Assembly: GCA_030295235.1 (NCBI GenBank)
Contig: AP026127.1
Location: 1,302,001-1,366,000 of the forward strand
Length of the DNA: 64,000 nucleotides
Direction of reading: 5' to 3'
DNA from: Fistulifera solaris
Taxonomy: Eukaryota
This document shows positions 39,837 to 53,110 of the stretch, piece by piece; position 1 is the first letter of the stretch, and every line of letters starts with the position of its first letter. Made by a program: the position numbers and the translations under genes. The notes under the pieces are model-generated. The model worked only from the letters and a program-made list of their open reading frames with translations, searched no databases and was not told the DNA's origin.

Positions 39837-41939
39837 CTACTGAATATACCGACATGTTAAGTCTAATAGCAAACAGGTTTGTGTAGTTTTCAATATTCTA
39901 TGTCCAGTAAACTTCTTGTTGTCCCGAATAGTTGTCCTGTGCTGTAAATTTTGCGAGAGACTGCGCCTCGACGCTAGAATGGGGGACCAACTCTCTAAAC
40001 GTCTTCGCCCGGCGATCGTTAAGAGTAGTAAGATCAAAAGCAAGATACCTCCCGCGGCCAAAAACATCGGGAACACACGCGGCGGTATGAATCCGACGTC
40101 CAATATACTGTCCGGCTCATCGTAAAGTATAGGATCGCGTCCTTGCGGAGCGAGACAGTGGGGACCCGTCCAACCTGCCCTGCACTCACACACCTTGCCA
40201 GCAGTACATCTCCCTCTTTCATCACCGCCACAGGCATCAGGTACGACCCCGGCAGCCGAGGGGACGCAAATGCCACCACCACGTTGTACCCCTTTCAACG
40301 GTCTGACATCGCTTGGAGACTTATAGAGATGTTCTCGAGCTTCAATGAATCGACGAGTCGGACGTTCAGGTGTGGAGCAGCCCACCTTGTGAATTGGGTT
40401 CTGGGGGTCTTGGTAGACTCTTACCCAATTTATCTTGTATTGCGGTCTTGTTTTAATCATGTCGCAAAACCCCTCGGAAAATCCACAGGCGCTTTCCCAG
40501 TGTTCTGAATTACAATCATACTGCTTACAAGGGCAATTTGCTGGACATTCATGAGGAAAACCCCACTGCTTGGATATCGCTGTATTCAACAAAATGTAAC
40601 TTGGTTCGCTCGATATTTCCGCGCCGTATCCTGCTGCTTGAATTCCTGTTCCGTTCAAAGCGAAAACAAGCTCGCCATCCAAGAACCAATGCAAATAGCC
40701 GCCAAAACCTTCGGTTGGTGGCTCCCATTCGACTCGATACACGTGGGGACTTTCGAAGTAAGTTTGGTCCAGTTGTCGATTCATACTGATAGCATCGCTC
40801 CAGTAATCTTGCTCAGCGGGATGAACATCATCCAGAAAGTGATTGTAATCGCCATAGAACAGTATATTGAGACTTGCATTTCTTCCGGGAGTCAAGCCTT
40901 TGTACCACTGTGTGGGACCCGGCCACTCACCGGGTCCCGGTCGATTGGCCGATCGCCCTGGAGCAACTTGGAAGGACGCACTCATGAAAGGTTGTCCAAC
41001 TGTCGTTTTGAGAAAAGGACCCGTGTTTCCTTTAATGTTACCTGGTTGCACTTCGAACACGTCAATTTCTGGCGCACCTCGACCGACACCTTGTTCTAAT
41101 CCATAGTGCGTCGCCCTATCGCACGCAGAAACCGCTTGAGCGGTAAACGACTTGCGCGTGCACGTTGTGGAGCTCCACGGCCAGATATGTTCGGATGTAC
41201 CGACGTAAGTATGTCTCGCCAGATTGCCCAGTAACCAAAATGCCGGCCACAAGCCACCGACATTGTGTTTTCCTGGAAGAATGACTTCCGCCTCCATGAT
41301 ACCTCCCGTAAAGCAAAATTTATTCCACGTTTGCAGCATAGCGGATCGAAAATGTTTCGTCACACGCGTCTTCTTCAACTTGATGTCATCAAAACCCACA
41401 ATATCGGTATTTTTCGCTTCGCTGGTAATCACCAGTTCCCCTTGTTCGTTTGTGATGGCATTTTCCGGAGAATAATAGTGCAGCGCGTCATTTGTGTAAT
41501 CATTCTTATCGAGAGCCGTCCACCGCGGATCGGCGCCATCCGCAAAGGTTCGAAAGGGTGTATTGAATTCATCACTAAACACTAATTGAAAATCGCGCGG
41601 AACATAAGTGGGATAGGAACTCGGGGACGACGACGGCGATTGGGAAGGGAATTCCGTCGAATGCGACGGCGCCGCCGATGGATGTGTACTGGCTTCTTCT
41701 GTCGGTCGTTTTCGTTTGTTACTGGTGCTTGTACTTGATTTCGACGACGAAGAAGAAGAGGGTTGGTGTGGTATGGCGTTGTACTTTTGTGTCGTTCGTG
41801 CCTCCCAAGGCGTGTCCGGGTCGACCCATCCGGCGGGGCTTTCGGACGGTATTAATCCAGGCAATAGACATATTATCAGTAAAACGAGTTTCGTAGGAAT
41901 CCTGGGTGAAGTTTCTGGTTTCGTTGCTGTGAGTATCAT
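39837..41939 (-). CDS. GH16 KRE6/SKN1-type beta-glucan transglycosylase (TGS-like) with EGF-like module and C-terminal TM helix
   Basis: GWVDPDTP, LVFSDEF, SAMLQTWNKFCFTGG, GLWPAFWLLGNLAR, GRGAPEIDVFE catalytic motif, CECRAGWTGPHC, hydrophobic anchor. Confidence 0.92.
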   Translation of the reverse strand: MILTATKPETSPRIPTKLVLLIICLLPGLIPSESPAGWVDPDTPWEARTTQKYNAIPHQPSSSSSSKSSTSTSNKRKRPTEEASTHPSAAPSHSTEFPSQSPSSSPSSYPTYVPRDFQLVFSDEFNTPFRTFADGADPRWTALDKNDYTNDALHYYSPENAITNEQGELVITSEAKNTDIVGFDDIKLKKTRVTKHFRSAMLQTWNKFCFTGGIMEAEVILPGKHNVGGLWPAFWLLGNLARHTYVGTSEHIWPWSSTTCTRKSFTAQAVSACDRATHYGLEQGVGRGAPEIDVFEVQPGNIKGNTGPFLKTTVGQPFMSASFQVAPGRSANRPGPGEWPGPTQWYKGLTPGRNASLNILFYGDYNHFLDDVHPAEQDYWSDAISMNRQLDQTYFESPHVYRVEWEPPTEGFGGYLHWFLDGELVFALNGTGIQAAGYGAEISSEPSYILLNTAISKQWGFPHECPANCPCKQYDCNSEHWESACGFSEGFCDMIKTRPQYKINWVRVYQDPQNPIHKVGCSTPERPTRRFIEAREHLYKSPSDVRPLKGVQRGGGICVPSAAGVVPDACGGDERGRCTAGKVCECRAGWTGPHCLAPQGRDPILYDEPDSILDVGFIPPRVFPMFLAAGGILLLILLLLTIAGRRRLESWSPILASRRSLSQNLQHRTTIRDNKKFTGHRILKTTQTCLLLDLTCRYIQ

Positions 41940-42476: not shown

Positions 42477-43451
42477 ATGAGCAACATGAATCGTCATCAA
42501 GCATTCTTCTTCGTTTTGGGGCTGTTTGCGGCCTCCAATCAAGCATACGTCTTGACGACACCAAAGAAATGTGTCACATCCCTTCAAGCTACGGTGGGGA
42601 AAGGAGAATCCATCTACTCACTGCCAGCACTCTACGATCTAGCGTTTGGGTATCGTGATTTTGAAGAAGAAGTGGACTTTTTATTGAATACGCACGAACG
42701 TTTGGCGGGTCGTCCGGCACTTTCGGTACTCGAGTTGGCGGCCGGTCCGGCGCGGCATGCTCTGACGGCTTTGTCGGACACTTCGATACAGACGGCAACA
42801 GCAGTGGATAGTTCGAAAGAAATGGCAGATTACGCAAAAGAAATTGCTTTAGAAATGCTAGATGAACAGCAGCTCAAGTCGTTTCAGTATTGTGTTGATG
42901 ATATGCGCTCTTTTCGATATAAAAACGGCAAAGACTCTGTTGACACGGTATGGATTTTGCTCGGCTCCTTACAACATTTGACCTCCAATGATGATGTTAT
43001 ATCGTGTTTACAAGCAGTTCGGGAAGCATTATCGGAGGATGGCACCGTTGTGCTAGAGCTGCCGCACCCGCGAGAAACATTTTCTATGGTCGAATGCACG
43101 AAAAATAGTTGGAAAGTGCCGCTGGAGGACGATTCTGGAAATGAATCCGGAGAGCTTAAAATTATTTGGGGCGATGATGGGGACACGTTTGATCCCATTC
43201 AACAAGTACGGCAATTCACAGTCGCGATGGAGCTTATGGGTGTTGCACAATCGGAGGGCATTCAGAATATTCGACAAGTTGTACCGTTGAGGCTCTTTAC
43301 AGCCCAAGAAATTGGAGCACTCGCTCGATGTGCGGGTCTCGAGCTGGTGGAAATGCACGGTGCATTAGAAGAAGGGGTTCAAGTGGACGACGAAATGCTA
43401 GCTTTTCGTCTGGTGTGCGTCCTTCAGCACCAGAAGAATCCTAAATTTTAA
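42477..43451 (+). CDS. Class I SAM-dependent methyltransferase with N-terminal targeting peptide
   Basis: LYDLAFGYRDFEEEVDFL, VLELAAGPARH motif I, AVDSS, DDMRSF, L..DGTVVLE. Confidence 0.88.
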   Translation: MSNMNRHQAFFFVLGLFAASNQAYVLTTPKKCVTSLQATVGKGESIYSLPALYDLAFGYRDFEEEVDFLLNTHERLAGRPALSVLELAAGPARHALTALSDTSIQTATAVDSSKEMADYAKEIALEMLDEQQLKSFQYCVDDMRSFRYKNGKDSVDTVWILLGSLQHLTSNDDVISCLQAVREALSEDGTVVLELPHPRETFSMVECTKNSWKVPLEDDSGNESGELKIIWGDDGDTFDPIQQVRQFTVAMELMGVAQSEGIQNIRQVVPLRLFTAQEIGALARCAGLELVEMHGALEEGVQVDDEMLAFRLVCVLQHQKNPKF

Positions 43452-44747
43452 AACAAGACCAACAATGCCACCCAACACATTTTCCAAGTAAATCGATTGT
43501 CTGAAAACGCCCACAATCCTTCATCTTATCTGGATACTTGTTTCACAGAACATGCTCTCGTGATTCGGGAGGATCATCAGGCTTGAGAATGAGCAGCGCA
43601 TTATCGTAAATTTGGTGGCTCCATCTATCGCACCCAGGAAATGTTCGCCGTTCGGTCGGTAATGTTCTGTAGACAACAAGCAAGTGTTTTCTAGTTTTTG
43701 ACTATCATTGATTGGTGATTGGATATAATGATGTAAATAAAACGGAGTACGCCGTACCGCCTTTTTAGAGCGCCCCTAAGAGTTTAGAGCTCCTTGAACT
43801 CGCATGACAAAGCCTCGTATATTTCAACAATTCACGGACCCATAATAATTCTTCACGCGTTAGCTTTCATGTGAATTCAAGGCATTCGGCCAGACCCTGA
43901 CCCAGACTCCGCAATGAGCCCCCGTGCAGCGGCGACGCAAAACAATCTCTACTCTTTAATCATAGTTGTTCTTCCTTTTCCACGCCCCTCAATCCCTTCA
44001 AATTTTGTCGGTGAAAGTGAAGTCCACCGGAAGCCTATTCATGGAAAAGCTTGCATGAGCTTTGCTTGAGATGATTGCTTTCGCTTAGATTTATTGGGCA
44101 CTTCGTGAATTTTGTGACCATGACGGGGAAAATCATCATCGCGAGAGATGCACATGAGAAATCTCCAGTCATTATGCTTTCACGACTCGCCGCCTCGGTG
44201 TCGCGTACACTAATGTATTGTTTCAATTTTCTAAGTGACATGGACGTGACGTTGTAGACTTAGACGTCATTCTTCACGAAACTTAGGCCCTTGTTTTAAT
44301 TACAAGCCGAAGAACCAAGTCAATCAAAAGGGTACTCTAGGTATTTAGTACCGTATGGTTTGACTGTGTGTGAAAGACTTGATTTGAGATCTAAAAAAGG
44401 TTTTTGAATTTTTTATCAATTCAACCAAGATTCATAACTAAAATCCAACTTCGGCAATTGTATTGGTTTCGGCTTAACCAAGACAGCTTCATAGGAAATT
44501 GTAGGAATGAAAAGAAAGAGGTCGGGCAATAGTATTAGAGTACAGAAGCTATTGATAGTAAAATGACCCTGCCATCAAGGAATGTCCATGTCCCCGCAGT
44601 TGCAATGAAGAATGAAGCAAGGGAATGAAGCGTCAAAAGATTTCCAGATCTCGAAATAGCTCCAGCTCCCTCATTCGCGTTGCTCATAAAAATTGCATCA
44701 GTAGTAGCAACCCTTCGATTGCACTAACACCTACTTCCCTCGCCACC

Positions 44748-45305
44748 ATGTACGACATTGAAGCAACTCTTGAAACTAACGCCATCGCTGGTGTCAGCTC
44801 TTCTGAGAAGAGCTTCCGTCGACGATTCCTTTGCGCAGCTGTTGTTTTGGGTTCGGTGATGTTCATTGCTGCCTCTGGCTTCTCCACGTCAACTGGAGGA
44901 CTCTTCGACCGCTCCTTGTCTCACAAGGAAGGTCACGGCCACGACAATGACGGATCGCACGGACACGACGGTCATCGCTCGCTCTTCGACCGTTCTTTGT
45001 CCCACAAAGAGGGACACGGTCATGATAATGATGGCGCTCACGGCCATGATGGTCATCGCTCGCTCTTTGATCGCGCCTTGTCTCACAAGGGAGGACACGG
45101 TCACGACAACGACAGTGAGCATGGACACGACGGTCATCGCTCGCTCTTCGACCGCTCTTTGTCTCACAAAGAAGGTCATGGCCACGATAATGATGGCGCG
45201 CACGGACATGATGGCCACATGCGCTCGCTCTTCGACCGCTCCTTGTCTCACAAAGGGGGACACGGTCATGACAACGACAGTGAGCATGGGCATGATGGTC
45301 ATTAA
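44748..45305 (+). CDS. His/Asp/Gly-rich tandem-repeat protein with signal anchor and RXL motifs (putative peptide precursor)
   Basis: ATG in GCCACCATG context; RRR followed by hydrophobic FLCAAVVLGSVMFIAASGF; five ~27-aa repeats LFDRSLSHK(E/G)GHGHDND(GS/GA/SE)HGHDGH(RS). Confidence 0.9.
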   Translation: MYDIEATLETNAIAGVSSSEKSFRRRFLCAAVVLGSVMFIAASGFSTSTGGLFDRSLSHKEGHGHDNDGSHGHDGHRSLFDRSLSHKEGHGHDNDGAHGHDGHRSLFDRALSHKGGHGHDNDSEHGHDGHRSLFDRSLSHKEGHGHDNDGAHGHDGHMRSLFDRSLSHKGGHGHDNDSEHGHDGH

Positions 45306-45782
45306 GTTCGCTGTTGCATAAAACTCGTTAGTGTGTCTCGCACGTGGCGATTAGCAAGCCAGTCCTTTTCGAATGTCGGCGAGCTATTTGCTCACGAGCG
45401 CTGTTAATTGGTTAATAATTATATTTATCATCTCATGAACTGTGGTTTCATCAGATTTCAGGCGCTCATTTAGAGCTGCTGTGATATATTTTCGGTTTTG
45501 TTTGACCCTCCCTCCGCATTGTTAGCTTCGTACGGGACTCACTCCTCAGTCGCGATTCCCAGTCGCACATGGATATTGCTATACCGAACAGTGTAGTGTC
45601 GACGACATAATCCAAAATGATCTATGATCGTACCACCACTGTAATAATTAAGTAATTAAAACCGTTCCGCATTGAGGACGATTCATGATAAACACAATAA
45701 CAACAACGAAATAAATAGGATCATTGTGCTTATTGACACAAAGACATGACACCATGAGATCAGCACCCCAACATTTTATAAA

Positions 45783-47574
45783 ATGACGGGTGATAAGTGG
45801 ATGACTTCCGGCGCGAACAGATTGAAGTCGCGTATGAATAGGTCTTTCGAAAGACGAGCGTCTTTGGGAGATGTGCCGTCGCCGAGAATCTCATTTTCGC
45901 GTGAGCCTTCAACGACGACAAAAAGACATCCCAGCTTTGTTAGGAGAAGCATTAGAGGGAGTACGTAATTAATTGATGAATCATTTCAATGAATTTGGCT
46001 TCATGCGCTGACTCTTTCTTTGTGTTTTAGTGACGGGAACGTATTCAAAATGGGCCGATCCTCTTTATAGGCGCGCCGTTACCCCGTCTAGTCCTGCACG
46101 TGGTCCCCTTCATCATCAGCATCAAGAAAGCGGCTATCCACCAGGAACAATTCTTCCTCAACCTAGCCGTGATAGCAGAGCAGCATCATGGCACGAACTG
46201 CCCGTTGCAGCGAATCCAGCTTTATTTCAGCGTTGTGATCCTTATCAAGATCAGCAATATCGTTCACCTCACGCACAGCTGCAACAACAACAACAACTCG
46301 CTTTCCTTGAGCCCCATCATCCTGCTTCGTACGGATACGAGCCAACCATTGCAGCTAACCCTACCTATTTCGCACGTCAAACGCTCCCCCTTCCGGAAGA
46401 AATGCCACATTATCGCGAAGCGACTTATCAAAATCAAAATGTTGCGCACTATCAAGGCCCTCAGTCTGGTGATCACGATGGATGGAAAAGTCGTGAGCAC
46501 CTTGTACCATACGCACCTTTTCCGCCGAATGAGTATGGCTATGACGCTATGAATCGCGAACACGCGGATGTGGCATTCTCGCAGCAGTGTTATGCATTTC
46601 AGGGCGATGACACTCTTGCTCACCAAATGGCTCGAATGCCGAAAGACGACGGACGAGGGATAGAGCAGTTTCGGAACCGGAACATGACGTTTGATCGAGA
46701 TGCGGCATCAATCTGCAGTAATGTGGGGATGGGACCTTTACCTTTTGAGCGACATGTTGCCGGAGAAAATTCACTGCACCAAGATTCGCTAATCGGCATG
46801 ACGAATATTCACCCAGAGTCAGATATCAACGATTTTGGAGCCAACTCAAACACGAAATTTCAACTCCCTTTGGATACAGCAGCTGTTCTTTCGTCCTCGA
46901 GAATGCCGGATGAAGCATTTGCGTATTGCAAGCGAGAGAACTTTGTGGACAATGAACATCCTGATTTCCGCGAAAGATGGATTCCCGGCCAGACCAAGTT
47001 CGACCTCAACTTACTAAAAAACAACGAGAACTTCAACGAAGATATCCAGGGATATGAGTTTCCTCAGGGAATAGAACGCTTTAAATGCAGATCGCATGAT
47101 GACGTGAAGGCCAACAAGAAGTCGGACTCGTCAGAGCGTAGAAAAGAAGAAAGCGAGAACAGTAGTAACCTGTCACATGAAAAAATTCAACCAGCAAGCA
47201 TGAATCGCGATGCTTCTCGAGATAGTTTCTCAAGTAGCAAGCGACCTGTCAACGGTGTGAAGGCGACTGAGTCCACTTCATCACAACACAAGGAGGAGCA
47301 AAGCAAAGGAATCACTAACAAAAGGAAACGGCTTGATGTGGATCACGAAGACGATCTCAAAGAGAACGAGCCGCCTCCGAACGAGACGGAAACGCGCTTG
47401 ATCGGTGCTCCGTTAGCCTTTCGCTTTTTCGACGGGGGTGTCGAAGTTGATATAGGTGGACGCCCAGTCGACGCGAAGAAGAGGAACGGTCACTCTGTAA
47501 AGCAGCCACCAAATTCCAGCCCAGATTCCCTCGTAAACATGAATTGGCAAAACGACGAATCTTTGTGGGGGTGA
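45783..47574 (+). CDS. Hypothetical low-complexity protein; 2 exons
   Basis: Intron 45961-46030 (GTACGT...TTTTAG) joins a 178-nt exon in frame to the 514-aa ORF; Q/P/H-rich, with basic NLS-like KRKR. Confidence 0.7.
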
Positions 47575-47932: not shown

Positions 47933-50585
47933 ATGACACGTAAAAAAGAACCAAGAGAGACAACAAAAAGGTGCTAGTGCTAGTACTGCTGGAGAGAATT
48001 TTTTAAAAGCAAAGACCAGTAAACTCCTACCTGTTCGTGTGATCGGGGCAACGAAGAGCCCGTCCTGTTCGAAACAAACGATAATCATCAACGTTTCGGA
48101 GCACGATGCATCTTTGCTAAATGTAAAAGTGCAAGATGAACTGATACTTATTTCGGTGGCGGAAGATGGCGGAGTGCGAAAAGTATCATCGATCATCATC
48201 GGTAATGCTGCCATTTCTCGATCCGAGCGCCAGAGTCCAGGGCAACCAAGCTCTAAAACAAAAACAGCAACTCCAGGGACCGTCATCGTGTCGCCTACGG
48301 GATCTCAATCAACAACAAAGCCTCCGCAAACACCTATTGACACGACAAGCGAACTTCCACAACGAACTCCGGATGATAAAAGGGATTTTCATTCAGGCGA
48401 GATGGCCTTACTTCGCCTTCCACCCCATCGAATCCAAAAAATTCTCCGTCTATACGAAGTTTTCAGACACAAGAGAAATGTTGGATCATTCCGATGACAT
48501 CGGCTCTGGGACGTTTCGTTGCACAAAATGTATGCTCTGATGCAGTGAGAGTTGATATTCGACCGGAGATAGAAGGAGACATGGTTGTAACATCAGCCCT
48601 ACGGGTCTTGGAAAGACTAGTATTGGCGAATTGTGTGGGTCGATATTTTCAAAAAGGCGAAACAATCAACATTTCATTTCAGGGGAGGACCATCGATGTC
48701 ATGCTCAATTCTATTGAAGCGTCCCCGAGACTGTACCTTTAGATGCAGCATTCAAACAAATGTCTTTGGAGGAAAACGACATCGTAAGCGATGACGACGA
48801 TGACGGAGGCAAAGAAAACTACTTGAGATGCCTCATAGAAAGGACGGATTGTCAATTGTTTAGAATTCATAAAGATACTCAAGTGATTTGTCGCGCGAAA
48901 GACGACGAAACAAAAGAGAGCTTGTACGATCAAGGACCTTTAGTGGTCGGCCTCGATGACACATTGAGCTCATTGAGAACTTTTCTAGAAACCAGCTTGG
49001 AGCGCAGCGATCTTTTTTCTTTTGGAGATGTTCGAATGAAACCTCCCAAGGGTGTGTTGTTGCACGGTCCAAGTGGCGTAGGAAAGAGCCAAGTAGCGAA
49101 ACAAATCGAACGAGAGCTCAAGATGCGATCTCATGATGTGACATACGTAAGCTGCGCATCACTTCGATCCAAAGCGGCGGTAGTCGGAGAAGCAGAGCGA
49201 TCGCTTACTTCGTTCTTTGATTCGTTAACTCGCAGCAAGCTATTAATTTTAGATGACGTGCATCTTATATGCCCCCGGAGAGGTAGCTCGACCAGTGGAA
49301 CTGATCAACTGGCTGCAACGCTGCTTGCGCTCATGGACGGAGTCTCAAACAAAGAGGAGCGCCCTTTGCTATCCTTGCTATTACCAACAATCCCTCACTG
49401 CTAGACGCTGCCATTCGACGACCTGGGCGGCTGGATACAGAAATTGAAGTCCCTTTGCCAGATCAACCGTCAACTCGAGCGGATATAATGAAATTTATCA
49501 TTCAGAGAATGAAGGTCACGGCCAATTCTGTTAGTGCAGATGATTGGTTGGATCTTGGTAAACTTGCAAAGGGTTTCAGTGGCTCTGATTGCATGCTTGC
49601 AATGAAAGAGGCGATACGGGCAGCATCGGTTCACTCATTACAAAACAGGTTGGAATTTGGAGCAGATTTGAAACTTACAGACCTTCGATCTTCTATCCGG
49701 GCAACTAAGCCTTCCACGATCAAAGCAATAACAGTTGAAATTCCCGAAGTAAAGTGGTCTTCGATCGGTGGAATGGAATCCGTGAAGAGGCAAATCAAGG
49801 ATGCCATTGATTTTCCTGATGAGCATAGCACTGCTTTCCGAGATCTAGGAATATCCGCGCCAAACGGCATTCTTCTTTACGGACCACCGGGTTGTTCCAA
49901 GACCTTGATGGCAAGAGCTCTTGCGACCGAAGGCAAAATGAATTTCCTCGCAGTGAAAGGACCCGAGCTTTTGAGTAAATGGCTTGGAGAAAGTGAACGA
50001 GCGTTGGCATCACTATTTAAAAGAGCTCGAATGGCTAGTCCTTCTATTATCTTTTTCGACGAGCTTGATGCCATTGCTTCAAAGCGTGGTAGCGCCGATT
50101 CGACAAGTAGTGGGCGATTACTCTCTCAGCTGTTGACAGAACTTGACGGCGTTTCTCATTCATCTTTCGGAGGCAAGGCACGACGAGTTGTCGTTGTTGG
50201 TGCGACAAACCGGCCTGACTTGCTGGATAGCGCGCTCACTCGACCCGGAAGAATCGATCGAAAGATATACGTTGGCGTTCCAGACATGAAAAGTCGTGCG
50301 CAAATATTCAAGCTCAATCTCAGCACCAAATCATTGGATGAAGACGTTAACTTTGATCTACTGGCAAGCGACGAAATCAGCGACGGGTTTTCTGGTGCAG
50401 AGGTGGTAGCGATTTGTAAGGATGCGGCTTTGCTGGCTTTGGAAGAGAGCGATGTTCGCGCAGTGGATCCAACACAGGTAACGATTGGTATGCGTCATCT
50501 ATTACAGGCAATCCGATCAACTCCCAAACAAATAACTTCAGAAATGCTCGACTTCTACTCGTCGTACCGTCTAACAGTCCAGTGA
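47933..50585 (+). CDS. AFG2: Double AAA+ ATPase of the CDC48 family (AFG2/SPATA5-like)
   Basis: Walker A GPSGVGKS and GPPGCSKT, Walker B IIFFDELD, SRH motifs IRRPGRLD and ATNRPDLLDSALTRPGRID; split over 4 ORFs by frameshifts. Confidence 0.85.
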
Positions 50586-50671: not shown

Positions 50672-52622
50672 CTACACCATTTGTACCTCGGCCTTTTTTG
50701 AAATGTCCGTGGCATCAGAGCCTTGTCCCTCCTCCTCATGGCTCAATTCGTCATCGTCCTCAATTGCACAACTTGTTTCCTCTTTATCGTTCTGTGAAGA
50801 CGCCAATTCCACATTTGTGTATTCATTCTCAACTTGATCTTCATCGTCGCCACCCACGATATACCCGGTCTCAATGTACTCATCAAATTTCTTTCCCATG
50901 AAACGTGCATTCCAAATTAGAAACGATGCAACACCCATTCCCACGAAGCTTCCGTTTGCAATTAGATTGGCTGCACTATCCGAAAAGAAGTTCGTAACGA
51001 GACTGCCAAGTGCTTTGGAGCCTCGTGCACCAAAGATATCGATCCAGCTCTTTGCTTTGTACCGCACCGCAGAACTGGTGGGCTGGTAGAGGATTTCTTT
51101 GGTGGGATTGTTGAGTGCGTACGAATTTGCTTTGAGCAACATCATAGCACCAAAAACAACGTAGAGAGTGGGGTAAAGTCTCACGAAAATGATGACGCAC
51201 AAACAAAGGGAAGGAAAAAGTAGGAGTGTCAATCGGAGGCCAAGGAAGCGAATCACCGCACTGGTTCCGAACAAGCTAAACAAAAACGACAAAGAATTCG
51301 TAGCCTGTCCAAATAGACCCATGAATGAGGCAAAGGCAGCGGTGGCTTGAGCTGATGTTCCATGTTCACCTGTCAGTGCGTCGTAGCAGTCCATTCCCAT
51401 TTCGCAAGGATACTCCTCGGCGAAATACTCTTTCGCAAGAAGTTTCATTGTAAAGTCAACAATAGTCACCTCAACCATAAATAAGCAGCTAATGGCAAAG
51501 ATTCCCTTCACGTAGTTGTGTTTCGCAAAGAGATGCAGTCCTTCCAAAATTCCGGTCTTGGCTTTCTTCGTTGTTGTAGGGTTGCTGGCATTTCTATCCT
51601 GAACACCATAGGTGGCTATGTAAAACCGCATTGTTCCTTGCAACAGCAGCATGCAGAGGGCACCGATCATGTAACATGAAGCCACGCTGCGATTGCGGGC
51701 GAGACGATTCGCATGAGTGAAAGAGCGCCAATCAGAGCAAATACTTTGCAAAGTGCACTCACCCTATTGTTTCCGCAAACCTAGCTACCGTCGGACCAAT
51801 AATACTTCCGATCTGTGCCGTGGCAACAATAATACCGTAACTGGCTTTGGCTGTCTCGAGCGTAATGTTCGAGTTGGCAAACGACCAAAACAAACTGACC
51901 ATGACGGAACCAAAGGATTCGATCGTACAGTAACTTATCCATCCCAAAAGTCGATACGGACTCGGTTTTTCATTTTTCAGCCCGATAGTGGGGTGCATCA
52001 GTAATAGAGCGATAACAATGAATGCGCCAAAGTAAAACGTTCCGAAGATGTAGAAGAGACGATGCTTGGGGATATCCGAGTCCAGTAAATGATTGTAAAT
52101 CGATACGACGCCAAGAACGACGAAAACCGACACAATTTTGGCTTTCGGGATAGTCTCAATTCCACAGAGAGCCGACAGGACAGGGTCTTTCAAAGAGCGC
52201 AGCAGCCAGTAGCCACCGATCATAAAGAAAAGCGTCGAAGCCAAGCAAAGCGTTCGTATCATTTCTGCCGGTGGAAGTTTGTCACCGTAGAGTCGTTTGT
52301 AAATCCTTTCCAATATCCGCAACACGCGAGCCATTCTTCGTTCGGAAGAGTTTCCGTGCGACTCCCACATCGGTCGATCAAAGAACTCGTCTTCGTTTTG
52401 CTCGTCCTTTTCTTGATCATACGACTTGCTTTCGCCTTTAATGAGCCCTTTCGAAGCACTGTTTGCCTCAATCACTTCACCACGCGGTCCTTTTCCCGCA
52501 GACTGCGTATTCATAGAACTCCAAGATTGACCGCTTTGACTTCCTTCACCTTTTCCTACCGATGCCGCAAGGCGCTGTGCCTCGGGAGAACTCATCGGAA
52601 AAGGGTCATTTTGTGGCGACAT
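50672..52622 (-). CDS. TLC-family nucleotide (ATP/ADP) transporter, NTT-like; 2 exons
   Basis: [55 protein letters not shown]; intron 51687-51762 (GTGAGT...GCAG). Confidence 0.9.
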
Positions 52623-53110
52623 TTCTCGTCTAGTTTTGCCGATTAGAGGGCTCCTTTCCTCAACTGTCGCGCAAAGAAAGATAGGAATGCACACGAGACC
52701 TGAAACCACAACAAGTAAGTTACGGATATCAATACTTATTATTATCGCATTGCCGAGACATGCAGCCGCATTGCTCATCATCGTCTTGTTGTCGACCGCG
52801 ATCGCACGCGTGCGTATCAACCAGTACCGGATAAAGTGTGGATATACAGTTACAAAACTTCCCTCTGTCGTAGAAGCACTAACGGATCGTCTGTTTGCGT
52901 ATTCACGAGCGACGACCTACTATGTCATCGCCTAAAAGTCGAGAGACTCTAGACTTCTAGACTAATAGCTCGTGCACCTAACTCTGTTTTCGATGAGACA
53001 TAGCCACAAAACTATCAAATGAATACAACTATGAAAGCCAAAAGTATAAGTAGCATGCCTGAATAATGATTAAGGAAAACACTAACTTTAAGAAAAGCTG
53101 AATAGCAAAA

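Follow-up and report, generated by a model that had tools for sequence, protein, structure and literature searches.

Introduction

Silica formation in diatoms is explained by a few fast-evolving families of low-complexity proteins, namely silaffins, silacidins, cingulins, silicanins and SAPs. The present study concerns a short gene whose layout recalls the precursors of such proteins. It lies on the forward strand, at positions 44748..45305 of a 64,000-nucleotide stretch of Fistulifera solaris contig AP026127.1 (assembly GCA_030295235.1, positions 1,302,001 to 1,366,000; hereafter the window), and encodes a 185-residue protein in which a single hydrophobic segment is followed by five tandem His/Asp-rich units, each containing an RXL motif ahead of its core. 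A sequence-only reading of the window, made by a model, had proposed that this protein is a polyprotein precursor releasing His-rich peptides at the RXL sites.

Among the published systems, the closest are the silaffin Sil1p of Cylindrotheca fusiformis and the silacidin of Thalassiosira pseudonana. The silacidin precursor is highly repetitive, and its processing releases peptides rich in Asp and Glu (PMC4557024). Mature silaffin-1 peptides have been found to lack the RRIL/RRNL present at the end of each repeat, and RXL was considered a possible recognition motif of a specific endopeptidase (PMC4557024). The protease that removes RXL was described as not yet identified (PMC5525289), the RXL sites themselves were, by one account, so far known only from biosilica-associated proteins (PMC5647440), and in the SiMat7-like proteins RXL is regarded as the canonical cleavage site (PMC5501833).

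Like silaffin and silacidin, the window protein would be a single secretory precursor carrying several short, low-complexity and disordered units bounded by RXL. It also belongs to a lineage-restricted family in which composition rather than sequence is conserved, and the units of two relatives (P0003 and P0004, see below) are rich in Lys, Ser, Gly and Asp. However, no sequence similarity to either protein was found with Pfam and HMMER, and the gene differs from the known RXL-delimited precursors in three respects. Its cores are rich in His, Asp and Gly instead of Lys/Ser or phospho-Ser/Asp/Glu; entry into the secretory pathway would proceed through a signal anchor, since a long N-terminal tail and a 19-residue hydrophobic segment are present in place of the classical signal peptide and RXL pro-domain of silaffin and silacidin; and its RXL motif, which is doubled, forms part of a more extended conserved sequence, (L/M)FxRxLxxK. 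The earlier statement that no His-rich counterpart of the silacidins had been recognised agrees with full-text searches of mostly open-access literature, in which neither a His-rich RXL-delimited precursor nor a His-rich biosilica peptide of diatoms was encountered.

Results and Discussion

Organization of the repeat array

The coding sequence comprises 185 codons followed by a TAA stop codon and is intronless, in agreement with the open reading frame (ORF) delineated by the sequence-only reading. The deduced protein begins with an N-terminal tail of 26 residues (44748..44825, aa 1-26), which is predicted to be cytosolic and ends in the conserved motif E-x-x-F-R-(R/K)-R, here FRRR. The tail is followed by a 19-residue hydrophobic segment, FLCAAVVLGSVMFIAASGF (44826..44882, aa 27-45), interpreted as a signal anchor or an uncleaved signal, by a short Ser/Thr/Gly spacer and by the five tandem units.

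Tandem Repeats Finder reported two periods for the array, one of 81 bp (4.6 copies, 44901-45278, 76% matches, score 456) and one of 162 bp (2.5 copies, 44901-45302, 85% matches, score 585). The array is therefore also a duplicated two-unit block, that is, it has grown at least once through duplication of two units together. Each unit is composed of a linker LFDR(S/A)L, a 19-residue His/Asp core and a terminal RS, which is extended to MRS in unit 4 and is missing from unit 5, so that units 1-4 are 27 or 28 residues long. Unit 1 (44901..44981, aa 52-78) consists of LFDRSL, core 1 (44919-44975) and RS; unit 2 (44982..45062, aa 79-105) of LFDRSL, core 2 (45000-45056) and RS; and unit 3 (45063..45143, aa 106-132) of LFDRAL, core 3 (45081-45137) and RS. 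Unit 4 (45144..45227, aa 133-160) contains LFDRSL, core 4 (45162-45218) and MRS, with one extra codon (Met, residue 158), and unit 5 (45228..45302, aa 161-185) contains LFDRSL and core 5 (45246-45302), directly after which the stop codon is found. The last codon before the stop is thus that of the last His of core 5, exactly as had been noted earlier.

The cores occur in three variants, SHKEGHGHDNDGSHGHDGH (once), SHKEGHGHDNDGAHGHDGH (twice) and SHKGGHGHDNDSEHGHDGH (twice), each of which has six His residues arranged in two HGHD pairs together with three or four acidic residues. Nine RXL motifs are located past the hydrophobic segment (R55, R77, R82, R104, R109, R131, R136, R159 and R164), eight of them being RSL and one RAL. 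In unit 1 the motif is single and in units 2-5 it forms a doublet, RSL-FD-R(S/A)L, an RXL thus preceding every core. The initial description of five repeats of about 81 bp, each with a 19-residue core after a mostly doubled RSL or RAL, was reproduced in full, as were the three peptide variants distributed among them.

The partition of residues between linkers and cores is strict. In the 140 residues past the hydrophobic segment, i.e. the predicted lumenal part, all nine Arg and all ten Leu belong to the linkers and none to the cores, while the 30 His are confined to the cores; the same part has 25 Asp and Glu residues. The array proper (residues 52-185, 134 aa) is made up of 30 His, 25 Gly, 20 Asp, 16 Ser and 5 Lys, among others.

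Selection on the repeat units

Comparison of the five units at the nucleotide level revealed that three of 25 columns vary at the first codon position, two of 25 at the second and 22 of 25 at the third. Summed over the ten pairs of units, 105 codon differences are synonymous and 24 are non-synonymous. According to the Nei-Gojobori method, the proportion of non-synonymous differences among the units (pN) lies between 0 and 0.09, and that of synonymous differences (pS) between 0.43 and more than 0.75, i.e. at or beyond saturation. Each unit is held by purifying selection far beyond what chance would give, and the pattern fixes the reading frame; the claim that the variation at third positions, with the peptide kept, reflects selection on the protein is thereby borne out. 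The units are either old or strongly diverged in their DNA, with the peptide almost constant.

The saturated synonymous divergence across the array (44901-45302) could be due to the great age of the units, or to selection for codon diversity that stabilises the array against recombination.

A small family of related proteins

An exhaustive HMMER scan of 1.84 billion representative proteins yielded four matches at E ≤ 0.001, one of them at E ≤ 1e-10, and no protein name or Pfam domain is attached to any of the four. The closest relative, P0001 (101 aa, E 7.5e-22, 63% identity), begins with MYDIE; P0002 is a 28-residue fragment (96% identity), and P0003 (120 aa, E 9.4e-6) and P0004 (150 aa, E 8.7e-5) are more distant. 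With the fragment excluded, the family, and the alignment built from it, consists of four full-length members including the window protein, the other three originating from environmental assemblies.

P0001, P0003 and P0004 share the N-terminal tail, the membrane segment and the linker motif with the window protein at 31-56% identity. The common plan consists of a tail of comparable length with F-R-(R/K)-R at its end, then a hydrophobic segment, the sequence G-(G/S)-L-F-x-R-x-L and two or three units separated by (L/M)-F-x-R-x-L. The residues E20, F23, R24, R26, A41, S43, S46, G50, L52, F53, R55, L57, K60, G72, F80, R82, L84, K87 and H90 are invariant in all four sequences. One Lys located three residues past the linker motif is thus found family-wide, and the context of the motif can be written as (L/M)FxRxLxxK. 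The last units of P0003 and P0004, too, are followed by x-R-x-L, behind which only a few acidic residues form the tail. The motif therefore borders all units of the family, its place being taken by the stop codon at the end of the window protein.

The core sequences, on the other hand, diverge across the family and only their composition is retained. The units of P0001 are rich in His, Asp and Glu, whereas those of P0003 have two and those of P0004 four His residues, accompanied by Lys, Ser, Gly and a C-terminal Asp-Asp; by their make-up, the units of the latter two proteins appear nearer to peptides of the silaffin/silacidin type. The linker and the Lys are the most conserved elements, as would be expected if the linker were a recognition site. 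The relatives accordingly keep the RXL motifs on which the earlier proposal depended (R55, L57, R82 and L84 in four of four) even where the cores have diverged. Two of its details require qualification. The second RXL of the doublet, lying within (L/M)FxRxL, is conserved throughout the family, but the copy in His-Arg-Ser-Leu is restricted to the window protein and P0001; similarly, the term His-rich peptides suits the branch formed by these two proteins, but not the units of P0003 and P0004 with their two to four His.

Other searches added little to this picture. The window protein matched no Pfam family and no PDB chain at E ≤ 1, and its use as a query against the ESM Atlas, as well as that of P0004, gave no usable match. 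The word-indexed protein search, in which 8000 candidates were scored for each query, returned one match for the single sequence and three for the four-sequence profile, these being already-known proteins, so that no new members were added. A profile scan of metagenome contigs produced 77 pattern matches, none of which was confirmed by tblastn; since P0003 and P0004 are JGI proteins, this confirmation may be too strict for a low-complexity family. A degenerate DNA pattern designed for H-R-S-L-F-D-R-S-L-S-x-K matched no stretch. The narrow distribution of the family may itself be an artefact, because gene callers, like the composition filters of HMMER, readily overlook proteins that are short and of low complexity.

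Predicted topology, disorder and charge

Residues 27-45 represent the top-scoring 19-residue Kyte-Doolittle window of the protein (mean 2.23). The 15 residues ahead of this segment include four Lys/Arg, with FRRR directly adjacent to it, and the 15 behind it include two basic residues and one acidic residue. According to the positive-inside rule, the basic flank of a membrane segment stays cytosolic; applied to the FRRR side, the rule predicts a cytosolic N-terminal tail and repeats facing the lumen or the exterior of the cell, and not the cytosolic placement of the repeats that would be at odds with their release as secreted peptides. The features needed for co-translational entry into the endoplasmic reticulum (ER) are present, namely the hydrophobic segment, the preceding FRRR and a modelled helix. 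Because of the 26-residue N-region and the 19-residue hydrophobic core, the segment looks like an uncleaved type II signal anchor rather than a cleaved signal peptide, which agrees with the signal anchor suggested at the outset. The first RXL (R55-L57) is situated approximately 12 residues beyond it.

Two other destinations were considered and rejected. The protein has no bipartite presequence for plastid targeting, its hydrophobic segment starting 26 residues in, and it is not a tail-anchored protein, as the membrane segment is N-terminal.

The AF2 model, based on the four-row alignment, reached a mean predicted local distance difference test score (pLDDT) of 47.3 and a predicted template modelling score (pTM) of 0.18. 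A helix was modelled at residues 4-42, with pLDDT values of 71-78 in residues 21-40, and the membrane helix is the sole part modelled with any confidence, 142 of the 185 residues having a pLDDT below 50. The repeats are therefore predicted by the model to be disordered.

The computed isoelectric point (pI) of the 19-residue core is 5.97, the charge passing from +3.0 at pH 5.0 and +1.7 at pH 5.5 to -1.9 at pH 6.5, -3.3 at pH 7.2 and -3.9 at pH 8.0. All three core variants carry an identical charge, because the change from E to G at position 4 is paired with that from GA or GS to SE at positions 12-13. For the units of the relatives, a pI of 5.35-6.42 was computed.

Transcription of the gene

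Contigs of four public sequencing runs were compared with positions 44000-46300 of the window, the cover being recorded in 30 bins. In run X1 (organism A) all 30 bins are covered, as expected of DNA. In run X3, which shares both organism and study with X1, the cover is restricted to 44710-45433, with zero depth in both flanks; X3 was taken as RNA because of this pattern, the RNA given in its record being a guess. A 646-nt contig of X3 is collinear with 44798-45433, has no joints and ends in 13 non-templated A residues after position 45433, where the genome reads CATGAA. The 3' untranslated region (UTR) is 128 nt long, and the AATAA at 45414-45418, located 15 nt upstream of the poly(A) site, is the inferred polyadenylation signal. 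The gene is transcribed into a polyadenylated, unspliced mRNA of the plus strand, with a minimum extent of 44710..45433 and the poly(A) tail added past 45433. Transcription of the locus, a point on which the earlier proposal could have failed, is hence supported both by the polyadenylated contig and by the confined cover.

The long X3 contig represents a variant form of the gene, which differs from the window at 29 substituted positions and lacks three nucleotides of unit 4 (deletion listed at 45197), ahead of the extra Met codon. Altogether 24 codons are changed, 17 synonymously and seven non-synonymously, and all 30 His residues are unchanged; five of the seven non-synonymous changes (SE to GA twice and G to E once) swap variants that already exist among the units. 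Another X3 contig of 118 nt shows no difference from the window, and both forms were also found in X1. It thus appears that the window form and the variant form are both transcribed, the latter being either a second haplotype or a paralogue. Contigs with 90-95% similarity were present in run X8 as well, a freshwater metatranscriptome of another study that is RNA by its record, and the loose end of one of them continues through the conserved Gly-Gly-Leu-Phe-Asp-Arg-Ser stretch. The runs containing the locus or its relatives include wetland and freshwater samples.

The start codon at 44748 stands in the context CCACCATGT. It is the likely start, because P0001 also begins with MYDIE and because the RNA-like cover starts at 44710. 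An in-frame ATG at 44625 would extend the protein to 226 aa, but this form was rejected, as the extension is not conserved in P0001 and lies outside the cover beginning at 44710.

Two X3 contigs carry, respectively, 30 and 17 unmatched letters upstream of 44710 and 44735. A 21-letter part of the 30-letter end is absent from the window when up to three mismatches are allowed, and no AG acceptor immediately precedes position 44710 in the window sequence. These letters may belong to the true 5' end of the transcript, to a leader exon joined by splicing or to the UTR of the second haplotype, or the contig may be chimeric. In a contig of the wetland metagenome X2, position 45033 is joined to 45200 with one letter in between, 166 nt being skipped and two units fewer being encoded. 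This may be a shorter allele, i.e. a repeat-number polymorphism of a related strain, or an assembly collapse; the latter is possible because the longest exact repeat within the array, 32 nt, just exceeds the 31-letter word size. Neither this join nor the cover-free parts in X2 (44462-44769) and in the flanks of X8 were used as evidence.

Putative role of the precursor

The repeats, the purifying selection acting on them, the polyadenylated transcript, the diatom origin of the locus (see below) and the existence of a small family with (L/M)FxRxL linkers and an invariant Lys form the established part of the picture. The whole chain built upon it, in which the protein is an RXL-processed, type II-anchored precursor of the silaffin/silacidin kind acting in the silica and cell-wall pathway, is put forward tentatively and with somewhat less than even confidence. 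The silica pathway is favoured because of the RXL context and the composition of the family, which shades into Lys, Ser, Gly and Asp, as well as the invariant Lys. The predicted disorder, the restriction to one lineage and the precedent of glassin point the same way.

Under this proposal, the FRRR-terminated tail would stay in the cytosol, the hydrophobic segment would insert into the ER, and the disordered C-terminal array would enter the lumen, where the putative diatom RXL endopeptidase would cut after each RXL. The first cut, at R55-S-L57, would free the array from its membrane anchor, and the later ones would yield five peptides of about 19-22 aa. Their C-terminal RSL could then be trimmed, by analogy with RRIL/RRNL in silaffin-1, and the stop codon right after core 5 may mark the mature C-terminus. 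With a pI of about 6, the peptides would carry a net negative charge in neutral compartments and turn cationic or zwitterionic at pH 5-5.5. Given this charge switch, they would most likely act within the acidic pathway of silica and cell-wall formation, as a component switched by pH and with His/Asp chemistry similar to that of glassin. The HxH/Asp sites would inevitably bind Zn, Cu and Ni as well.

In glassin, a protein of the hexactinellid sponge Euplectella, His and Asp account for more than 30% of the residues, and the formation of silica depends crucially on the HD domain (PMC11733937; PMC10772126). Glassin is secreted and disordered, as is predicted for the window protein, and both sequences are rich in His and Asp. 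However, glassin belongs to an unrelated organism, is larger, comprising HD, Pro-rich and His/Thr-rich domains, and has, as described there, no RXL-delimited peptides. No homology of the window protein to glassin was detected (four matches among 1.84 billion proteins, no Pfam family, no PDB chain), the resemblance being compositional only. A more specific version of the proposal, which has to be regarded as rather doubtful, would see the peptides as convergent with the glassin HD domain: silica peptides of pennate diatoms, released at RXL from a type II-anchored polyprotein, becoming cationic between pH 7 and pH 5 and engaging silicic acid, polyamines or silaffins only in the acidic silica deposition vesicle, with the linker as the best-defined natural substrate of the RXL protease.

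Several points weigh against a silica-related precursor. Every step after insertion into the ER is inferred from sequence features. As a motif, RXL is short, and its part in the processing of precursors was stated to be still unproven (PMC5647440). The conserved L-F-x-R-x-L-x-x-K is longer than RXL and might serve in binding or sorting rather than as a protease site. The cores are neither Lys/Ser-rich, like silaffin, nor Ser/Asp/Glu-rich, like silacidin (30 His, 5 Lys and 16 Ser per 134 residues), and six His per 19 residues correspond to classical metal-ligand chemistry, for which a silica role is not needed. No similarity to named biosilica proteins was found by the Pfam, HMMER and profile searches, and the family was not detected in the annotated diatom proteomes of the searched libraries. 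A core component of silica formation would not be expected to be missing there, though lineage restriction is usual for such proteins. Finally, the evidence of expression is based on assembled contigs of X3, a run whose RNA nature is guessed.

The first RXL of each doublet also brings to mind another processing signal, as RSLFD fits the PEXEL motif, RxLx(E/Q/D); the family-wide site, in which RxL is followed by S, G or H, does not fit it, and the likeness to PEXEL/TEXEL is a lead only. In apicomplexans, RxL processing of this type is due to aspartic proteases of the ER or Golgi. The enzyme that cuts PEXEL, plasmepsin V, acts in the ER (PMC4740378).

The main rival to a silica-related precursor is a metal-handling protein that takes no part in silica formation. 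Its His/Asp repeats, cleaved or tethered by the N-terminal anchor, would be ligands of Zn, Cu, Ni or Co at the cell surface, inside a vacuole or along the secretory pathway, and would capture these metals when they are scarce, buffer or store them, or detoxify them. This is considered possible, although not likely. It is chemically natural for HxH/Asp sites: every core offers six His in two HGHD pairs along with three or four acidic residues, and none of the 30 His has been lost from the expressed variant. A peptide released after an RXL cut would moreover start with Ser-His-Lys, and such an Xaa-His amino terminus is known for Cu(II) binding from Gly-His-Lys. The occurrence of the locus or its relatives in wetland and freshwater samples, where metal supply presumably varies, would also suit it. 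The architecture, a single N-terminal membrane segment with the bulk of the protein outside, is that of ZCRP-B of marine diatoms, a Zn/Co-responsive NikA homologue with one predicted N-terminal transmembrane segment that was proposed to be a membrane-tethered metal ligand of the cell surface (PMC9010474), and His-rich regions are typical of ZIP transporters (PMC9873189). However, no homology to ZCRP-B/NikA or to any metal-binding family was detected (Pfam and PDB, E ≤ 1), and in place of a NikA-like fold (mean pLDDT 47.3) the window protein has a short repeat array with cleavage-type linkers. A metal transporter or chaperone was likewise not encountered among 11 neighbouring ORFs. His is not conserved in the family, as seen from the two and four residues in the units of P0003 and P0004, while neither the linkers, (L/M)FxRxL, nor the Lys vary, so that selection seems to act on the linker and on the K/S/G/D/H composition and not on a metal site; the conservation of linker and Lys over His is what a metal-handling protein leaves unexplained.

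The purifying character of the selection bears on two further alternatives. A defence-peptide precursor, from which Gly/His-rich peptides acting with Zn or Cu on bacteria, chytrids or oomycetes would be released, is quite improbable. Its model would be the shepherins of Capsella bursa-pastoris, several Gly/His-rich peptides that are joined by short linkers in a single small secreted precursor (PMC4695807), and the 25 Gly and 30 His per 134 residues of the array, as well as the induction of the antifungal activity of shepherin I by Zn(II) (PMC10698721), are in line with it. Antimicrobial peptides are, however, generally positive (PMC4695807), whereas the peptides predicted here would be negatively charged in waters of natural pH (-3.3 at pH 7.2, -3.9 at pH 8.0) and not cationic. 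Shepherins are antimicrobial peptides of a plant, with no Asp and no RXL linkers in their precursor; no similarity to them or to another family was revealed by Pfam and HMMER, and the units are under strong purifying, not diversifying, selection. Still less credible, to the point of being nearly negligible, is a minisatellite kept open by chance, with a functionless product. Repeats of low complexity do keep reading frames open, and two further frames, of 151 aa on the plus and 137 aa on the minus strand, are indeed open over the array; moreover, the protein has neither a Pfam family nor a fold in the AF2 model. These frames are by-products of the repeat, and a functionless repeat is contradicted by the selection (22/25 variable third positions versus 3/25 and 2/25; pN ≤ 0.09 at near-saturated pS), by the polyadenylated transcript and by relatives sharing tail, membrane segment and linker at 31-56% identity.

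Genomic neighbourhood and lineage

The 11 neighbouring ORFs were scanned for protein families. Besides three ORFs to which no family was assigned, they include those of an SKN1/KRE6 protein, a methyltransferase, AAA ATPases, TLC transporters, a PPR-Smr protein and ribosomal protein L3. None of the 11 is a silica, protease or metal transporter/chaperone gene, and gene order is therefore uninformative on the function of the His-rich protein.

The lineage of the locus is indicated by the SKN1/KRE6 beta-glucan synthesis-associated (GH16-like) protein, encoded on the minus strand at 39837-41939 and provided with a C-terminal teneurin-type EGF domain. A search with this protein, in which 8000 candidates were scored, gave 904 relatives at E ≤ 1e-30. 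The best match has 97% identity, and the others among the matches listed have 51-71%, the protein being highly conserved among diatoms. Within the best 120 of the 904, the top identities of named entries, 60-64%, are those of pennate diatoms, with Mayamaea (64%), Fragilaria (63%), Nitzschia (62%) and Epithemia, Cylindrotheca and Pseudo-nitzschia (61% each), the centric Skeletonema (57%) and Thalassiosira (55%) and one apparent bolidophyte (53%) being lower. Judging by these protein similarities, the locus is that of a pennate diatom, and the literature on RXL in diatoms is therefore relevant to it.

The gene next to the His-rich one, 1.3 kb upstream at 42477-43451 on the plus strand, encodes a class I S-adenosylmethionine-dependent methyltransferase (Methyltransf_25, E 1.6e-08) with a hydrophobic, signal-peptide-like N-terminus. 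As the lysines of silaffins are methylated (PMC4557024), the presence of a secretory-pathway methyltransferase beside an RXL precursor that contains Lys is suggestive, but in eukaryotes the adjacency of two genes carries little weight.

Two pairs of neighbouring ORFs seem to be parts of split genes. Those at 50672-51670 and 51759-52781 on the minus strand correspond to positions 244-456 and 22-200, respectively, of the 491 positions of the TLC ATP/ADP transporter profile and most likely form a single gene for a nucleotide transporter, interrupted by an intron of some 90 nt. The adjacent ORFs at 48760-49404 and 49488-50585 on the plus strand contain one AAA ATPase domain each and probably constitute one gene for a protein with two AAA domains, split by a short intron.

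Significance

To the RXL-delimited precursors the gene adds a type of different chemistry, in which imidazole and carboxylate groups are combined at a pI near 6. The long and strictly conserved cleavage-type context, repeated up to nine times within 140 residues, makes the protein a possible substrate for finding the RXL protease. If the peptides were metal ligands, freshwater diatoms would possess a novel type of metal buffer, either secreted or tethered. If they were associated with silica, they would provide a diatom parallel to glassin and a natural pH-switchable silica/metal peptide of biotechnological interest.

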